Source: an uncultured Verrucomicrobiae bacterium
Lineage (GTDB): Bacteria > Verrucomicrobiota > Verrucomicrobiia > Opitutales > JABDGR01
Length of the DNA stretch: 64,000 bases
Direction of reading: 5' to 3'
NCBI GenBank assembly: GCA_963765205.1
Contig: CAVXVB010000008.1
Coordinates: 128,001 to 192,000 of the forward strand
The notes under the pieces: model-generated
What the model was told of the DNA's origin: nothing
The model's input: the letters and a program-made list of their open reading frames with translations, nothing else
Database searches by the model: none
Shown here: positions 10,001 to 63,915 of the stretch, in pieces
How the letters are laid out: the number at the start of each line of letters is the position of its first letter
Position numbering within the stretch: position 1 is the first letter of the stretch
Translations under genes and position numbers: made by a program

Positions 10001-10146
10001 GTTTCGAGTTGAACCAAGACTCCATCCTTTCACCGCAAAGGCGCAAAGAGCGCAAAGGAGGATTTTTGGTCGGACTTTCCCTTTGCGTTCCTTGCGTCTT
10101 GGCGGTGAATTATCTCGAAACCCAAAACCCGAAACTCGAAACTAAC
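9976..10146. repeat. Nested inverted tandem-repeat element: outer 7-mer arms (TTTCGAG/CTCGAAA), inner 9-mer arms (CGCAAAGRR)
   Basis: Outer arms 9976-10009 and 10113-10146; inner arms 10029-10059 and 10079-10109. Each pair is reverse-complementary. Confidence 0.85.
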
Positions 10147-12157: not shown

Positions 12158-13035
12158 GGTTGATCGGACACGGACCTGAATTCCTTGCTCCACGCTTCGA
12201 TAAATTCTTGTGGGTTGGCACCGCGCTCGCGCAGGGTGGCCAAGCTCAGGGCGTCATTCCTTTTCGCCAGACGCTGGCCGTTTTCATCGAGCATCAGCGG
12301 CGCGTGGCACCAGGCGGGGGCGGCCCAGCCGAGGGCGCGGTAGAGGAGGAGTTGGCGGGCGGTGCTTTTGAGGAGGTCCGCGCCGCGCACGACTTCGGTG
12401 ATCTGCATGGCGTGGTCGTCGGCGACGACGGCGAGTTCGTAGGCGGGCACGTCGTCGCGCCGCCAGACGAGGAAGTCGCCGAAATCCCGGCCGGCGGTGA
12501 AGGCTTGCGGGCCGCGCAGGGCGTCGGAAAAAGTGATCGTCTCGCCGTCGGGGACGCGGAAGCGCCAGTTCGCGTGGACGGCGGCGGGCGCGGGAAAGTC
12601 GCGGCCCGCGCCGGGGGGCGGGCGCCAGGCGGGCGGGTAGAGCGGCTCGGCGTCCTCCTCGTCGGCGTGCGGGGCCTGGGCGGCGCGCTGCACGTCGGCG
12701 CGCGAACGGGAGCAGGGGTAAATAAAACCGCCGTCGCGCAGGCGTTGCCAGGCGTCGAGATAAATGGCGCGGCGGCGGCTTTGCTCGTAGGGCGCGTGCG
12801 GGCCGCCGACGTCGGGGCCTTCGTCCCAAGTGAGGCCGAGCCAGCGCAAGTCGTCGAGCGCGGCGGCGGCAAATTCGGGGCGGCAGCGGGCGGCGTCCAA
12901 ATCTTCGATGCGCAAAACCAGCCGCGCCTCCGGCCCGGCGGCGCGGGCGCGGGCCTGGACGAGCCAGAATGTGCGGGCGTGGCCGAGGTGGAGGCGCCCG
13001 GTGGGCGTGGGAGCGAGGCGGCCGCGGTAAGGCAT
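12154..13035 (-). CDS. gluQ: glutamyl-queuosine tRNA(Asp) synthetase
   Basis: GRLAPTPTGRLHLGH, LRIEDLD, VVRGADL, RLAKR; truncated GluRS size. Confidence 0.9.
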   Translation of the reverse strand: MPYRGRLAPTPTGRLHLGHARTFWLVQARARAAGPEARLVLRIEDLDAARCRPEFAAAALDDLRWLGLTWDEGPDVGGPHAPYEQSRRRAIYLDAWQRLRDGGFIYPCSRSRADVQRAAQAPHADEEDAEPLYPPAWRPPPGAGRDFPAPAAVHANWRFRVPDGETITFSDALRGPQAFTAGRDFGDFLVWRRDDVPAYELAVVADDHAMQITEVVRGADLLKSTARQLLLYRALGWAAPAWCHAPLMLDENGQRLAKRNDALSLATLRERGANPQEFIEAWSKEFRSVSDQP

Positions 13036-13039
13036 GGGG

Positions 13040-13280
13040 GAAGGATGAAGGATGAGGGATGAAGGATGAAGAAAGAGAATTCCGGATTTCGAGTGCCATC
13101 GAATAAATCGCCGCCAAAGTCCTCTCGGAGATTTTCATTGATTTTTCAAATTAGCCATCCGTATTTCGATTTCCTTCATCCTTCATCCTTCATCCTTCAT
13201 CCTTCATCCTTCATCCTTCATCCTTCATCCTTCATCCTTCATCCTTCATCCTTTCTTTTTCCTCCCTCATCCGTCATCCT
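13040..13280. repeat. Inverted 7-mer element (GGATGAA / TTCATCC); right arm has 11 perfect CCTTCAT copies
   Basis: Left arm 13040-13072; right arm 13173-13249 plus degenerate copies to about 13280. Confidence 0.9.
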
Positions 13281-13307
13281 TTAGTTTCCGTCCCTCTTCC
13301 TTCCCTT

Positions 13308-15265: not shown

Positions 15266-15380
15266 GAATTATGATTTAGGATTTAAGATTTATGAAAGGG
15301 CCGCTTCACGCGTGGCCCGATTTCCATTTTAATGGTGCGCGGTTTTTTATTTCATAATTCATAAATCCTAATTCATAAAT
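15266..15380. repeat. Inverted 7-mer element (ATTTAWG / TTCATAA)
   Basis: Arms 15266-15297 and 15350-15380; the right arm overlaps the ATG at 15379. Confidence 0.8.
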
Positions 15381-15821: not shown

Positions 15822-15915
15822 AGTTTACCGTTTTCGGTTTTCGGTTTTCGGTTTGCGGTTCTTGCTTAGCGGACGGCACAACCAACTGGAAACCGAAAAC
15901 TGAAAACCGTAAACT
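15822..15915. repeat. Inverted 7-mer element (GTTTTCG / CCGAAAA) between convergent genes
   Basis: Arms 15822-15854 and 15884-15915 are reverse-complementary. Confidence 0.85.
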
Positions 15916-19170: not shown

Positions 19171-19671
19171 TCATTTCTTTTCCGATTGGGCGGCGGACAT
19201 TTTTTTGATGAGGTCGGTGGTGCTGTGACCGGGGAGGAAGGGCAGGAATTCGATGCGGGTGCCGGCGGCCGCGAGCGCGGCGCGTTCGCCGGGGTCGAGT
19301 TTGTCGAGCGTGTAGTCGCCGGCTTTGACGTAGAGGTCGGGGCGCAGGGTGCGGATTTCCTGGTCGAGGCGCGGGGTGTCGAAAACAAAAATCGTGTCCA
19401 CAAAATCGAGCGCGGCGAGGGCGGCGGCGCGGATGGGGGCGCTTTGCACCGGGCGCGTCGGGCCTTTGAGGGCGCGGACGCTGGCGTCGCCATTGAGCGC
19501 AATGAAAAGCGCGCCGCCTTTGTCCGCCGCCGCGCGCAAGTAATGCAGATGCCCGGGATGGAGCAAATCGAAGACCCCGTTGGTGAGCACGACGGGGGTT
19601 CCAGCCGCGCGCAATTCCGCACGCCGGGCAACGGCGGCGGCGAGGTGGCGGAGTTTGGATGACTCGGGCAT
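19171..19671 (-). CDS. cytidyltransferase-family adenylyltransferase (RfaE domain II / HldC-like)
   Basis: TNGVFDLLHPGH, LNGDASVRALKGPTRP, YVKAGDY, GHSTT. Confidence 0.85.
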   Translation of the reverse strand: MPESSKLRHLAAAVARRAELRAAGTPVVLTNGVFDLLHPGHLHYLRAAADKGGALFIALNGDASVRALKGPTRPVQSAPIRAAALAALDFVDTIFVFDTPRLDQEIRTLRPDLYVKAGDYTLDKLDPGERAALAAAGTRIEFLPFLPGHSTTDLIKKMSAAQSEKK

Positions 19672-19675
19672 AAAA

Positions 19676-19810
19676 AGTAGAATATAGGAGGCAGGAGGTG
19701 GAAGGTAGAATAAAAACACGGAAAGAATCCTCCCTCTTTTTGGGGATCAATCATCAAACAAACGGAGCCTGACGATTCCACCTCCTACCTCCTACCTTCT
19801 AGCTTCTAGT
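19676..19810. repeat. Inverted 7-mer element (GTAGRAG / CTYCTAC)
   Basis: Arms 19676-19711 and 19775-19810. Confidence 0.8.
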
Positions 19811-19814
19811 CCCC

Positions 19815-20938: not shown

Positions 20939-21152
20939 AAGAATGAAGGATGAAGGATGAAAAAGAAAGGATGAAGGATGAGGGATGCAGGATGAAGAAG
21001 AATATGCTGAATTCTGAGTTATGAATTCTGCAATCCAGAAAAATTACTCAAACTGTTTGTGGGGCGTTGATTTTCGTTGGCCCCAAGACGCAGCAATCCC
21101 CATTCCGATTTTGCTTCATTTTTCATCCTGCATCCCTCATCCTTCAGCCTTC
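20939..21152. repeat. Inverted 7-mer element (GGATGAA / TTCATCC) between divergent genes
   Basis: Arms 20939-20997 and 21114-21152. Confidence 0.85.
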
Positions 21153-35996: not shown

Positions 35997-36055
35997 GGCG
36001 GGCCAATTATGAGGATGCTCCCGAAATCTTGTCGCGTATGCTTTCAGTGCAATTC

Positions 36056-36177
36056 AGTAGTCAAGGAATCCTTAACTAATGCCGCTGACGGCAACTATCC
36101 GGAAATTCCGGATCGTTCAAACCGAAGGAGTTTGCCGTCCCTTCAGTAGTCAAGGATTCCTTGACTACTGAAGGGAC
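36056..36177. repeat. Three 25-bp palindromes; the third lies within a perfect 41-bp palindrome
   Basis: 36056-36080, 36093-36117, 36145-36169; perfect 20-bp arms at 36137-36156 and 36158-36177. Confidence 0.85.
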
Positions 36178-37039
36178 CGCAGAATCCGCTTGGGCAAAAT
36201 CCCTGCCACGCAAGATCGTAGATTGATTTCACGAAATGACCTCGTAGATATCTAACACGGTCCTTAAACTCTGTTTGGTAAAAAGTGACGCCAACTAAAG
36301 CTGATCGTTCTATGCTTAGATGACCGTCAACCTCATGTTTGCGGATTTGCATCGCCCAAATTGGACCTCCGCTTACTCCAGCAAAACTCATGGGCAAATT
36401 GGGGGAGGTCGAGAAATCACACTTGCTCTCGATATAATCCCATCCGTCTTTTTCATGAATATCATGCGCTCCAATTGAATTTAGAAAAGCCATATGCTTG
36501 TTAATTCGATAAATGTCATTCCCGTCGATTGTCGTGCTGCAATCTAACTCTGGGTATCCAATCGATGCCAGACCAGTGCCAATAATTCCAAATTCTTGTA
36601 AAATTTGTTCGTGATTTCGGTCAAGCGACCACACCGAGCCGAAGGCCGATACCCATCCTAATGAAGCCCCAGGAATAATCTCCAAAAATGTCAAGTCGGG
36701 GCCATACTCCTCGCTTTTTGGCTTGGTTAGAGGGTGCTCAAGTAGCGCGTTTGGCGGCAACATCAAGTTACGGCCTCGCGCCAGAACCAAGAGAAGGGAG
36801 TCTTGACCATTGGGGCCAACATGAATCTCTGGTGAGCATGCATGCAAACAATGCCGAGCGGTAAGAATCCCGACGCGCCCGCACTTCTTTACCAATGTTC
36901 CAGATCCCAGTGGAACGAATGTGGATGCGTCATTCCCGATTACGCGACCAAGTGCCACAGAATACGGAACGAACTCGCTTTTGACGATTTCGAGAAACTC
37001 GTTTGGGAGGGCACCCAATGGAACGAATTCAATTCCCAT
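36143..37039 (-). CDS. trypsin-like serine peptidase domain protein, AT-rich, no signal peptide
   Basis: GSGTLV, ILTARHC, PDLTFL, GVSGGP catalytic-triad-like motifs. Confidence 0.7.
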   Translation of the reverse strand: MGIEFVPLGALPNEFLEIVKSEFVPYSVALGRVIGNDASTFVPLGSGTLVKKCGRVGILTARHCLHACSPEIHVGPNGQDSLLLVLARGRNLMLPPNALLEHPLTKPKSEEYGPDLTFLEIIPGASLGWVSAFGSVWSLDRNHEQILQEFGIIGTGLASIGYPELDCSTTIDGNDIYRINKHMAFLNSIGAHDIHEKDGWDYIESKCDFSTSPNLPMSFAGVSGGPIWAMQIRKHEVDGHLSIERSALVGVTFYQTEFKDRVRYLRGHFVKSIYDLAWQGFCPSGFCGPFSSQGILDY

Positions 37040-49809: not shown

Positions 49810-49895
49810 TTTTGACAGAATTAACAGAATTTACAGAATTATCCTTAATAATCATCCCAAGACTAATTTTGTTAATTCCGTTAATTCTGTCAAAA
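49810..49895. repeat. Inverted 9-mer element (ACAGAATTA x3)
   Basis: Arms 49810-49841 and 49864-49895 are near-perfect reverse complements. Confidence 0.88.
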
Positions 49896-53168: not shown

Positions 53169-54326
53169 TCACGCGTAAGGAAATTTCGCCCACTTCGCGC
53201 CGGCTTTCGCGCTTTTGACCGCAGTTTCGATGAAGGTCATCCCGATGACGCCGTCTTCGATGGTGGGATAATCGAGGTCCTTGGGCAGGGGCCGGCCTTC
53301 GACTTCTGCCTCAATGGCGCGGAAGGCTTCGAGGTAAATATTGGCGAAGGCCTCGAGGTAGCCCTCGGGGTGGCCAAAGGGGATGCGCGTGAATTTCTTC
53401 GCGGTGGCGCCGACGTAGCTGTTGCCCCGCCGCCAGATTTCGCGCGGGCGGTCGGGATATTTCATGATGAGTTCGTTGGGATGCTCCTGGTGCCATTCCA
53501 ACGCCGCCTGGTCGCCGTAAACACGGATGTTGAGGTTATTTTCCTCGCCGATGGAAATTTGCGAGGCGTGCAGCACGCCCTTCGCGCCGCCGGCGAAACG
53601 CACGAGGATGTTCGCGTCATCCTCGAGCGCGCGGCCGGGGACGAAGGTCGTGAGGTCGGCGCAGAGAGACTCGATGCGCAGGCCGGTGATGTAACGGGCG
53701 AGGTTTTCGGCGTGGGTGCCGATGTCGCCCAGGCAGCAGGCTGCGCCGGATTTCTTCGGGTCGGCGCGCCAGGCCGCCTGCTTCTGGCCGGTGGTTTCGA
53801 GACGCTGCCAGAGCCAGCCTTGCGGGTATTCGACGACGACCTTGCGAATTTTACCGAGGCGGCCCGACTGCACCAGTTCGCGCGCCTGCTTGACCATGGC
53901 GTTGCCGGTATAGTTGTGCGTGAGCACAAAGACTTTTTTGGTCCGGCGCACGATCTCGCGCAATTTTTTCGCCTCGGCGAGGTTGAGCGTCGCGGGCTTG
54001 TCGCACACGACGTTGAAGCCGGCCTCAAGCAGGAGTTTCGCCGGCGGGAAATGCTCGTGGTTGGGCGTGACGATGACGACGAAATCGAGCCGCGTGAGCG
54101 CGGGCATTTTCGACTCGGCTTTCACCATCTCGGCATAGGTGGCATAAACGCGCGCGGGGTCGAGCAGCAAATCCTGCCCGGTCAGGCGCGAATTTTCCGG
54201 GTCGGCGGAAAAGCAGCCGGCGACCAGCTCGGCCTTGCCGTCCATGACGGCCACAATGCGGTGCACCGCGCCGATAAAAGCGCCGCGCCCGCCACCAATC
54301 ATGCCAAAACGTAGTTTGCGTTTCAT
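53169..54326 (-). CDS. Gfo/Idh/MocA oxidoreductase
   Basis: [36 protein letters not shown]. Confidence 0.92.
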
Positions 54327-54344
54327 GGGGAAGAAGAAGAAGGA

Positions 54345-54798
54345 TTAACCACGGAGAACACGGAGGACACAGAGGGGTTAAATGATAAGGCGTTTGATAC
54401 CTTGTTTGAGTAGACGAACCTTAAAGTTGACAAGCCAGCCTATGCGGTTGTTGGTGAGGCGCAGGTAGTCAGCACTTGGGCTTCATGAATCGGTAACAAC
54501 TCCTCCACCGTTTTCAACTCAACAATAATGGAATCTTCCACCAGCAGGTCGATGCGAAATCCTTCATCGAAAGTCAGGCCATCGTATTCCACCGGCACGA
54601 TTTTTTGACGCTCAGCCCGCAACCCTCGTTTGCGAATTTCGTCGGCGAGACAAGCCTCGTAAACGGATTCCAACAAGCCGGGTCCCAGCGTTGTATGCAC
54701 CTGCAATGCCGCCGCCAAAATCCGGCCTGTAAGTTTTTCTTGTTCCATAAAGACAATTTCTCCGTGTCCTCCGTGTCCTCCGTGTTCTCCGTGTTTAA
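54345..54798. mobile_element. Putative cassette: GxxExxY gene bracketed by inverted 9-mer arms
   Basis: Left TTAACCACGGAGAACACGGAGGACACAGAG (54345-54374); right arm 54758-54798 reads TTAAACACGGAGAACACGGAGGACACGGAG on the minus strand. Confidence 0.65.
54378..54748 (-). CDS. GxxExxY protein (PD-(D/E)XK-like); 1-bp frameshift near 54468
   Basis: VHTTLGPGLLESVYE, RIDLLVE, IVELK, HEAQVLT | YLRL..IGWLVNF...GIKR. Confidence 0.9.
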
Positions 54799-54804
54799 AT
54801 TTCT

Positions 54805-55848
<1,044 letters not shown>

Positions 55849-55879: not shown

Positions 55880-56236
55880 TTACAATGACAAAAGAATTCG
55901 CAGCCGGTCTTCGACTTCAGCCATCGTGGCCGGGGCAACCATGCCCCAGCGGCGTTCCAGGCGCGCTTTGCTCACCGAACGAATCGCTTCGCACATGATG
56001 GCGGACGGAGCTTTGAGTCCACCCTCGGAAGGTTCGGCGACCACATGCCAGGGAATCGAACGCAGGTTGGTGGTAATGGGAATCGCCACCACCAGATCCG
56101 CCCCACTCTGGTTAAATTCCGCCACCGAGACGACGAGCACTGGCCGACGCCCCGCTTGCTCGCGTCCCTTGATGGGATCGAGATCAGCCAACCAAACTTC
56201 GCCTCGTTGCGGATTTATGGAAGTGGTGGGCGCCAT
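55880..56236 (-). CDS. PemK/MazF family toxin
   Basis: [36 protein letters not shown]. Confidence 0.93.
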
Positions 56237-56239
56237 GGT

Positions 56240-56489
56240 TCAGCGGCTTTTCAATCCATCAGCTAAGTGTGACCTCCCACTCACCCAACTCCGACTGGTG
56301 CTTTTTCCAGGCCCGCGGGTCGCGGCGCAACGCGTCGTAGGCTGCGCTGGCTTCTTCCAGGAATTTCTGGCGACGGTAGGTTTCCAGCGCTTGGTCAAGA
56401 ACCTCCGACATGCTGGCATCGTCTGCGGAAGCAAGACGGCGCAGCAACGCGTGGCCCTTGGACGAAATACGGACGGTGGTGGCGGACAT
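56240..56489 (-). CDS. ribbon-helix-helix antitoxin; probable 1-bp frameshift near 56265 (otherwise ends at 56259)
   Basis: TTVRIS...LRRLA...MSEVLDQALE; typical WE.TLADGL tail in the adjacent frame; directly upstream of the toxin. Confidence 0.8.
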
Positions 56490-56499
56490 GAGCCTATTC

Positions 56500-56548
56500 A
56501 GGCCTTTGAATACATTTTTGTCAACAATTTTGGCTACCAAAATGACAT
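56500..56548 (-). promoter_or_regulatory. TA promoter/operator: TTGACA -35 and palindrome ATTTTGG-N3-CCAAAAT
   Basis: Palindrome at 56527-56543 adjacent to a minus-strand TTGACA. Confidence 0.5.
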
Positions 56549-63493: not shown

Positions 63494-63518
63494 ATTGGGT
63501 TATAAAATGTTAAATCGA

Positions 63519-63550
63519 TTCACCGCGAAGGCGCGGAGAGCGCAAAGGGA
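63519..63550. repeat. Solo 9-mer arm TTCACCGCGAAGGCGCGGAGAGCGCAAAG
   Basis: Matches the family at 10029, 35471 and 63775. Confidence 0.75.
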
Positions 63551-63774
63551 AACGTTACGGAATTAACATAATTTATACTAACCTTGTGTTGTTTTGAACT
63601 TGAGGATGCCGGGTTCTTCGTCCCGGGGAGCCGCGACCACCAAAAAAATCAACCGCCAGACGGTGCATGCGGGATGAGCGCGCATGGCAGGGGCAAGGGC
63701 TGGATAACAATCATCTAACGGCGAAAGCCATAGACGGCCACGGTCAATTGGGCAAGGTAATTAGCGAGTGATTT

Positions 63775-63898
63775 TTCACCGCGAAGACGCCAAGAACGCA
63801 AGGAAGATTTTTGGGCAGAATTAACAAAATCTCTCCCGGCACTTTGTGCCTGGGTGAACAAAATTTATTCTTGGCGCTCTTCGCGCCTTTGCGGTGAA
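63775..63898. repeat. Inverted 9-mer element (TTCACCGCRAAG...)
   Basis: Arms 63775-63804 and 63868-63898. Confidence 0.85.
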
Positions 63899-63915
63899 TA
63901 TGCGTTATTACCCGC

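Follow-up and report, generated by a model that had tools for sequence, protein, structure and literature searches.

The GxxExxY gene located between an isomerase gene and an oxidoreductase gene of an uncultured Verrucomicrobiae bacterium is bracketed by two inverted arrays of a 7-base word, and the same arrangement recurs at most GxxExxY loci compared across phyla. The reading preferred here, which is given a probability of roughly one half, is that GxxExxY proteins are RecB/Cas4-type nucleases with cognate word arrays, and that the resulting cassettes remain in place for long periods, eventually decay, and supplant each other at gene junctions that are used repeatedly, by a cut-and-repair process. 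It draws on the layout of the locus, its family-wide recurrence, the co-inheritance of word and protein, the conserved catalytic residues, purifying selection on the gene, the existence of gene-less copies and the re-use of junctions.

In the proposed mechanism, an intact GxxExxY protein would recognise the 7-base words and would nick or cut there, the bound and cleaved substrate being an extruded hairpin, ssDNA or dsDNA. During repair by the host, units delimited by arms would be copied into pre-existing intergenic hairpins or would overwrite them, with the nuclease as the cause of the spread. A cassette would stay in place until its synonymous sites are near saturation and would then decay, leaving a hairpin that lacks the gene, a half arm or simply an empty spacer, and new sites would be gained only rarely, including sites in other phyla. 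Such a cassette system would be intermediate between insertion sequences on the one hand and RAYT/REPIN, which does not jump, on the other. A more far-reaching version is put forward tentatively and is to be regarded as doubtful: GxxExxY proteins would be sequence-specific nucleases of ~123 aa reading C-R-C-N-R-A-(G/T) arrays, with the 7th base set by a C-terminal hairpin, and would drive transposase-free cassettes that, in many bacterial phyla, enter hairpin "slots" between the genes of operons and displace each other there, each slot being reusable.

The arms constitute a first candidate DNA target for the huge, uncharacterised GxxExxY family and a specific, testable substrate, for which the words of the AG class and the AT class could be swapped. 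If the reading is true, GxxExxY would represent a third enzyme class with dispersed cognate hairpins, after the HUH enzymes (RAYT) and the GIY-YIG enzymes (Ssn), suggesting a repeated origin; it would also give the Geobacter "global regulator sites" a new explanation and could provide site-specific nucleases of very small size. The locus itself is of limited interest, as its gene copy is a pseudogene and the repeats are already in print.

Architecture of the Element

The element lies in the window, i.e., the whole stretch of 64 kb that was analysed (Table 1). The stretches 54345-54375 and 54768-54798 are inverted relative to each other over 31 nt and are 94% complementary, with word units spanning 54350-54374 in the left arm (n = 3) and 54760-54793 in the right arm (n = 4). 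A genome-wide count of the two-unit pattern CACRGAGNNCACRGAG gave 104, against 0 for the pattern read backwards, so that the inverted CACGGAG-unit arms bracketing a GxxExxY gene, as proposed in a preliminary description from the letters alone, are real. Two further observations made there hold as well: the element is more AT-rich than its surroundings (50% GC compared to 63-64% in the 1-kb flanks), and it splits a co-oriented pair consisting of an isomerase-like TIM barrel gene and a Gfo/Idh/MocA gene, one on each side, as confirmed by profile matches. The distance of 3 bp between the full-length stop codon (54378-54380) and the first unit of the 3′ arm was given correctly, whereas the distance between the start codon (ATG 54746-54748) and the inner unit of the right arm was measured as 11 bp instead of 9 bp. 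The stop codon of the upstream TIM barrel gene is located 6 bp from the arm.

In the predicted RNA the arms close a 26-bp stem (z -5.5), and the outer flank at 54327-54344, which fits the A-rich flank consensus of the arm family, pairs weakly with 54799-54806. An Rfam scan gave no match over the element, and a promoter/terminator scan revealed nothing above chance. Directly upstream of the isomerase gene, a PemK/MazF-like toxin gene (PF02452) is encoded together with a small upstream partner ORF (55880-56540, minus strand).

Table 1. Coordinates of the element, its flanking genes and the gene-less hairpins in the window.
Feature	Position	Strand	Details
5′ arm (upstream of gene)	54760..54798	-	TTAA-A followed by four CACGGAG units, 9-nt period
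3′ arm (downstream of gene)	54345..54375	+	three CAC(G/A)GAG units, inverted vs. 5′ arm
GxxExxY (PF13366 PDDEXK_3) gene	54378..54748	-	ATG 54748, TAA 54378; 1-nt deletion near 54468
Outer flank, purine-rich on + strand	54327..54344	.	between 3′ arm and Gfo start codon
Upstream host gene, xylose-isomerase-like TIM barrel (PF01261)	54805..55848	-	IolE-like below cut-off
Downstream host gene, Gfo/Idh/MocA oxidoreductase	53169..54326	-	profile search
Gene-less hairpins, CGCNAAG and ACAGAATT families	10032-10108, 49810-49895, 63518-63899		

The GxxExxY Gene and Its Predicted Fold

The window gene matches the GxxExxY profile TIGR04256 with 112.9 bits (cut-off 35) and PF13366 with 109.8 bits (cut-off 22), and its protein contains the motif G24-x-x-E27-x-x-Y30. 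The 1-nt deletion leaves an ORF of 102 aa (stop 54440-54442) and a tail of 28 aa in a different frame, which removes Y95 of the QxxxY motif together with the C-terminal strands. The frameshifted letters 54281-55027 are identical in a contig of sequencing run X1, which may be the source sample and which differs from the window by one missing base at 56262. Because of the frameshift, the copy is not autonomous, and the proposal of an autonomous member falls for this locus. It is the sole GxxExxY gene in the genome, which is 92% complete. Using tblastn with 200 GxxExxY proteins, no further remnant was found genome-wide, and none in eight arm pairs with large loops, which gives no support to an origin of gene-less hairpins by internal deletion.

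Across 200 GxxExxY proteins D67 and K79 are conserved in all 200, E27 and Q91 in 198, E77 in 195 and Y95 in 194. The conserved residues correspond to RecB motifs II, III and QxxxY of Cas4, for which D, ExK and QxxxY were described as the RecB motifs (PMC8610317). The structure model of an intact orthologue (G003; pLDDT 95.5) has Cas4 SSO0001 as best structural match (Z 8.1, rmsd 3.7, 99 aligned; Foldseek E 0.005), and nearly all of its top structural neighbours are PD-(D/E)XK enzymes, with the Z of 8 being middling and no Foldseek E under 0.001. According to this model, GxxExxY has a restriction-endonuclease-like fold with D, ExK and QxxxY and thereby resembles the PD-(D/E)XK enzymes Cas4, RecB and lambda exonuclease in fold and motifs; it is predicted to be a metal-dependent nuclease. 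Unlike Cas4, it is ~123 aa long, has no iron-sulfur cysteines among its conserved columns and has no CRISPR context at the locus. A sequence search of the PDB yielded one chance match only. The PF13366/GxxExxY family is huge, as 7,998 of 8,000 scored candidates matched and half of 111 genomes of the phylum contain a member; PF13366 was classed as function unknown with multiple transfers (PMC3424549). A published mention of GxxExxY concerns a gene called Cas4 beside a reverse transcriptase.

The Same Site in Related Genomes

The Gfo gene is present in eight of nine genomes of the family, and the upstream DNA was sufficient for comparison in five; G007 is cut at a contig end, and the partial G002 and G005 were left out. 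G003 has a full and intact cassette at the site. In G008, an outgroup from another genus, the site contains a hairpin that encloses no gene and is built of related words, G006 has an empty spacer of 18 bp, which is too diverged to reveal a target duplication, and G004 has a spacer of 38 bp resembling a decayed 3′ arm. The G004 spacer scores better against the 3′ arm of another copy than 2000 of 2000 shuffles and shows a weak similarity to the window's own arm (reached by 68 of 2000 shuffles), which is suggestive of an arm remnant. In G001 (L032), the Gfo gene has other upstream neighbours: the isomerase gene is not adjacent to it, and two small ORFs resembling a toxin-antitoxin pair are found instead. 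In a metagenome relative (L040, 656-1030) the site is likewise filled by the cassette, whose gene there has its own 1-nt deletion, at a distance of 12 nt from that in the window. Programmed frameshifting was considered and rejected, as the genes in the genome under study (G000) and in L040 are broken at these different places and the close homologues are intact. L040 additionally has a G-to-R change in a GPG motif, and its frameshift and this change may reflect decay or an assembly error.

Among G000, G003 and L040 the nuclease gene shows a dN/dS of 0.05-0.09, including the tail past the break, compared to 0.07-0.11 for the Gfo gene, and a dS of 0.95-1.8 compared to 0.54-1.05, with the same order of distances. 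Accordingly, GxxExxY has been long resident at the site under strong purifying selection and broke recently, and the gene looks inherited there. As G004 retains what may be a decayed 3′ arm and G008 a hairpin, the empty allele of G006 may be a loss, which is a simpler reading than a site that was never filled, the Gfo tree lacking resolution. The empty-site comparison called for in the preliminary description thus yielded an empty allele, and this allele may have arisen by loss. In the sequencing runs X1-X4 and X7 no joint skipping the element and no empty allele was found. Within the genus, GxxExxY occurs in three of six genomes, and the two genomes with a cassette at the focal site are the richest in arms (104 and 43; others 0-8).

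Arms and Protein Across the GxxExxY Family

The arms were evaluated for 200 distinct GxxExxY proteins, 47 from an order-level sample and the others nearest to two queries. Seven loci were dropped for short flanks and 193 were scored; a locus counted if either flank carried two or more copies of the word and the two flanks were inverted relative to each other. Inverted arms were found at 144 of 193 loci, whereas moving the windows outward by 400 bp gave 12 of 131 and shuffling the sequences gave 10 of 193. Thus, the flank comparison across phyla proposed earlier came out in favour of arms and GxxExxY as a family unit that lacks a transposase and has gene-less relatives.

Two classes of proteins can be distinguished that differ in the C-terminus and in the 7th base of the word: a long C-terminus goes along with words ending in AG (89 vs. 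1) and a short one with words ending in AT (89 vs. 1), with 20 of 200 unlabelled. For the 47 order-level proteins, class and word match 18:1 and 13:1, with 14 unlabelled. As this split coincides with one deep branch, it amounts to approximately one event. Within the AG class, a tree of 80 rows requires 16 changes for word position 2, where the minimum of 300 shuffles is 17, and 10 changes for position 5, where the minimum is 21. The co-variation between arm and protein expected in the preliminary description is therefore present insofar as the word follows the protein tree, and since kin share labels it indicates co-inheritance and not recognition.

At the level of genomes, at least two three-word arms are found in 35 of 56 genomes of the phylum with a GxxExxY gene and in 3 of 55 without, the related genomes among these 111 not being independent; 21 of the 56 gene-bearing genomes have fewer than two three-word arms of the tested pattern. 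G106, which is 95% complete, contains 39 three-word arm matches, and no GxxExxY/PF13366 match was found in it. Among protein pairs with 80-89% identity, 39 of 68 share neither flank, and close homologues span many phyla, from which it follows that the family relocates. The claim of a mobile element may thus apply to the family, whereas the gene at the focal site, under purifying selection, looks inherited. Per genome, 1-20 GxxExxY matches are found. G029 has 20 matches over several contigs, about nine of which cover the first ~42 profile positions only, pointing to a possible recent spread of truncated copies; two full genes with 92% identity (L014, L122) are located in different contexts of this genome. 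On plasmids, GxxExxY was detected in 7 of 72,556 records, and it was found in 0 of 50,697 phages and in no viral contigs, the plasmid and phage collections being biased to taxa that perhaps do not have the family.

Gene-less Hairpins and Conservation of the Words

A fuzzy search of the genome for arms revealed 109 matches forming 36 pairs, of which 33 are shorter than 120 bp and contain no gene. With the wider word C/T-R-C-V-R-A-G/T, 629 arms were found compared to 117 in the reversed genome, resulting in 97 paired elements of the CACGGAG, CACGGAT and CGCNAAG families. In the arms, CACGGAG words are repeated in tandem next to an A-rich/TT(T/G)AAC flank. The small elements, with loops of mostly 9-127 nt, are intergenic in 88 of 89 cases; the genes on either side are co-oriented for 55, convergent for 25 and divergent for 8, the latter two against a background of 450:450 (p 0.005), as judged by the gene calls of a crude in-house finder (3,083 genes, 77% coding). 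The genome holds 43 three-word arms of the CACGGAT type and 99 arms of the CGCNAAG type, yet it has one GxxExxY gene, which is broken and of the AG class; like the arms of G106, this speaks against the preferred reading.

The preliminary description reported the same arm architecture without a gene elsewhere in the window. Such hairpins are present (Table 1), but with related, different words, and the CACGGAG hairpins are all located outside the window. The hairpin at 63518-63899 is nested three deep, with an outer CGCNAAG arm, an inner CGCNAAG element and a ACAGAATT unit in the loop. Genome-wide, the loops of 19 of 79 elements contain a further tandem array compared to 2.2 in shuffles, although in about 9 of these cases the array may represent additional units belonging to the arm itself, or a mis-pairing. 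Directly after the hairpin at 10032 a heptamer run follows (10032-10145 together), and heptamer-armed inverted arrays (GAAGGAT, GATTTAT, GTTTTCG and others) are found at 13029-13281, 15269-15378, 15822-15915, 19666-19813 and 20939-21152. They constitute a second repeat system, which brackets four-helix-bundle genes elsewhere in the genome. Near-perfect inverted repeats of another, non-tandem type are located at 36053-36187.

At the free positions, pairing between the arms of the same element does not exceed that between arms of different elements (46/80 vs. 41.4 ± 4.2; 67/162 vs. 65.6 ± 5.5; 12/20 vs. 11.3), the invariant word positions not being informative in this comparison. Mismatches between sense-strand arms likewise show no bias of G-U over A-C (27:21 and 13:15). 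It is the word that is conserved in the arms, and selection for base pairing is not apparent, which fits word recognition.

The hairpins also bear on whether the element is a cut-and-paste element of the MITE/IS type targeting TTAA, with GxxExxY as the transposase or a transposase supplied in trans, which is the reading nearest to that of the preliminary description. Terminal inverted repeats, gene-less copies, the empty allele of G006 and the TTAA at both outer ends of the window copy, pointed out already in the preliminary description, would be in agreement with this. However, TTAA does not represent a conserved end or a target duplication, as it is found at 17 of 40 CACGGAG-family arms and at both ends of 4 of 20 elements of this family and 0 of 27 of the CGCNAAG family, and the absence of a fixed target duplication largely refutes such a mechanism. 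Furthermore, the copies do not look like newly inserted MITEs, as their loops and the order of their units vary, a single gene of long residence is present in the genome, and profile searches within the element gave GxxExxY/PDDEXK_3 as sole matches and none to DDE, HUH or tyrosine-recombinase families. It is hence very hard to maintain that the element is of this type.

Relation to Known Repeats and Repeat-Associated Enzymes

The arms themselves were described earlier. In Geobacter metallireducens, 21 inverted pairs with three TCTCCGTS[Y] units were reported as class 2 "global regulator binding sites", possibly bound by IHF/HU (PMC2700814). These sites are intergenic with a variable spacer, and IHF/HU binding was put forward there as a hypothesis (Aklujkar et al., 2009; PMC2700814). 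Compared by eye, the class 2 sites and the window arms share the same word, the inverted pairing and the intergenic location; their unit spacings are 9 and 8 in Geobacter and 9 and 9 in the window. Within the accessible parts of that paper the sites are read as IHF/HU or regulator sites, with no tie to a nuclease or to mobility. The proBA gap was shown to hold a different repeat in a sister Geobacter species (PMC2700814). The pair Gmet_I219 spans 439 bp, and Table S4 of that study gives no gene between its arms (PMC2700814). Its inner flanks (Fig. S4), translated by hand, read ..ESELTDLIIG and ..YTKYLKEGIKRIIF-stop, which appear to be the two ends of an AG-class GxxExxY-like protein, as read from the flanks alone, and would extend the same pattern to another phylum. 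The term "undescribed" in the preliminary description is thus not valid for the arms, which are in print (PMC2700814), and stands for their link to GxxExxY: no such link was found in the literature covered, which did not extend to supplements and most subscription journals, and arm 16-17-mers had no match in a text search of the literature. As the Geobacter arms surfaced only in a supplement legend, further descriptions of arms may exist.

The Geobacter proposal can be generalised to arms that serve as sites of a host nucleoid or regulatory protein such as IHF/HU, with the nuclease gene as one of several possible contents of a pair. This hypothesis was published for the same inverted word pairs (PMC2700814), word conservation without selection for pairing would fit any DNA-binding protein, and arms persist in genomes without an intact GxxExxY gene. 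It does not account for the association with GxxExxY among genomes (35/56 vs. 3/55), for the bracketing of three-quarters of the GxxExxY genes, for a word that tracks the GxxExxY tree or for site occupancy varying between close species, and is therefore considered highly improbable.

Among repeat-associated enzymes, the REPIN/RAYT system is similar in that one enzyme gene is flanked by cognate repeats and many extragenic inverted doublets of ~100 bp with a variable spacer occur, which are enriched downstream of genes, rare on plasmids and of long residence (bioRxiv 10.1101/2021.07.10.451892; PMC3733652). In contrast, the RAYT enzyme is an HUH tyrosine (IS200-like) transposase and GxxExxY belongs to PD-(D/E)XK, and REPs are short palindromic sequences with a GTAG/CGTC tag, whereas the arms here are tandem non-palindromic words lacking this tag. 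RAYTs are described as single-copy, non-jumping and vertically inherited; GxxExxY is single and resident at the focal site, but elsewhere often multi-copy, relocating and crossing phyla.

The Ssn nucleases with their NTS/SRM repeats resemble the cassettes as a small single-domain nuclease gene located between dispersed cognate hairpin repeats (Chenal et al., 2025; PMC11893778). SsnA shows the repeat-gene-repeat layout and lowers transformation, and 42% of Ssn genes are flanked on both sides compared to 75% of GxxExxY genes (PMC11893778). Ssn is a GIY-YIG enzyme (cd10448), which the window gene is not, and each NTS is a self-contained short hairpin, whereas each arm here is a tandem array so that a stem needs the pair (PMC11893778). 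Activity was demonstrated for SsnA (PMC11893778), whereas that of GxxExxY is predicted from sequence and model.

Re-use of Gene Junctions

The 47 order-level loci were sought as the same junction in G000, which gave 15 rows and 11 distinct syntenic sites; excluding the focal site and L012, whose flanks are not adjacent, nine sites remained. At 8 of 9 junctions that hold a cassette in relatives, G000 contains a hairpin element, compared to 9 of 79 controls, i.e., junctions that G000 shares with G019 or G008, and 7 of 46 for which the relative's gap is at least 60 bp (Fisher p 3e-6 and 4e-5); for co-oriented junctions overall the number is 193 of 1,962. The occupant in G000 usually originates from another element family than the relative's cassette, e.g., a CACGGAG hairpin is present in G000 where G008 has a CGCAGAT cassette, and heptamer hairpins are found at others. 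In the control set, all three junctions filled in both G000 and G008 differ in word. At the junction G000:C8:327334-327651 (L265), a four-helix-bundle (TIGR02436) cassette with GAAGGAT arms is located where G039 has GxxExxY. Cassettes of the four-helix-bundle type, with their heptamer arms, are thus found at junctions similar to those of GxxExxY and once at the same junction. For the proposed replacement of cassettes this constitutes an objection: nuclease-free elements, i.e., four-helix-bundle cassettes and heptamer hairpins, fill the same junctions, so that sites may be re-used independently of GxxExxY, because the host tolerates such inserts or benefits from them. Moreover, the arms of different families share no homology that would guide replacement.

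The GxxExxY genes at a junction that is presumably gatA-gatB do not form one clade (AU p 0.0004), whereas those at a presumably uxuA-like junction may form a single clade (AU p 0.23); gatA/gatB, uxuA and xylA/xylB are our own provisional assignments for the junction genes, made from sequence. One site common to several families, together with this latter result, is what would be expected if GxxExxY were a domesticated host system similar to SsnA/NTS or RAYT, which cuts incoming or single-stranded word-bearing DNA or processes hairpins, the spread of the repeats being secondary. This is regarded as unlikely, albeit with several points in its favour: a dN/dS as low as that of the housekeeping neighbour with the same order of distances, rareness on plasmids and absence from the phages searched, and the precedent of SsnA with the same layout and its effect on transformation (PMC11893778). 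A host system would not be expected to be patchy within a genus, to range from 1 to 20 copies per genome or to acquire frameshifts independently in G000 and L040 at the focal site; the occurrence of close homologues in other phyla and in unrelated contexts also argues against it, and the taxon bias of the plasmid and phage sets weakens the argument from rareness.

The occupation of the same junctions by different element families would also be compatible with inserts acting at the level of RNA in a manner similar to intervening sequences (IVS), with a stem that is tolerated in or cut from the operon mRNA by an RNase III-type enzyme and a loop gene, either GxxExxY or a four-helix bundle, that is a passenger; some junctions would favour the presence of a stem. 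The Coxiella IVS was reported to be removed by RNase III and to encode a four-helix bundle (PMC4990558). With the ORF-bearing 23S rRNA IVS (PMC4990558) the window element shares a size of ~430-450 nt and a long stem whose loop contains a small ORF, and the stem predicted for the window element, the intergenic location and the preference for convergent over divergent gene pairs described above agree with such a mode. The two differ in that the IVS is located in rRNA and has a four-helix-bundle ORF, whereas the window element lies between protein-coding genes and encodes a nuclease fold. Excess complementarity and G-U bias are lacking at the free positions, invariant positions again not being informative, the fixed words are kept across phyla, word and protein class co-segregate and the catalytic residues are invariant, which together render an RNA-level insert improbable compared to the preferred reading of a nuclease with cognate word arrays. 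The four-helix-bundle genes of G000 number seven, two of which have an internal stop.
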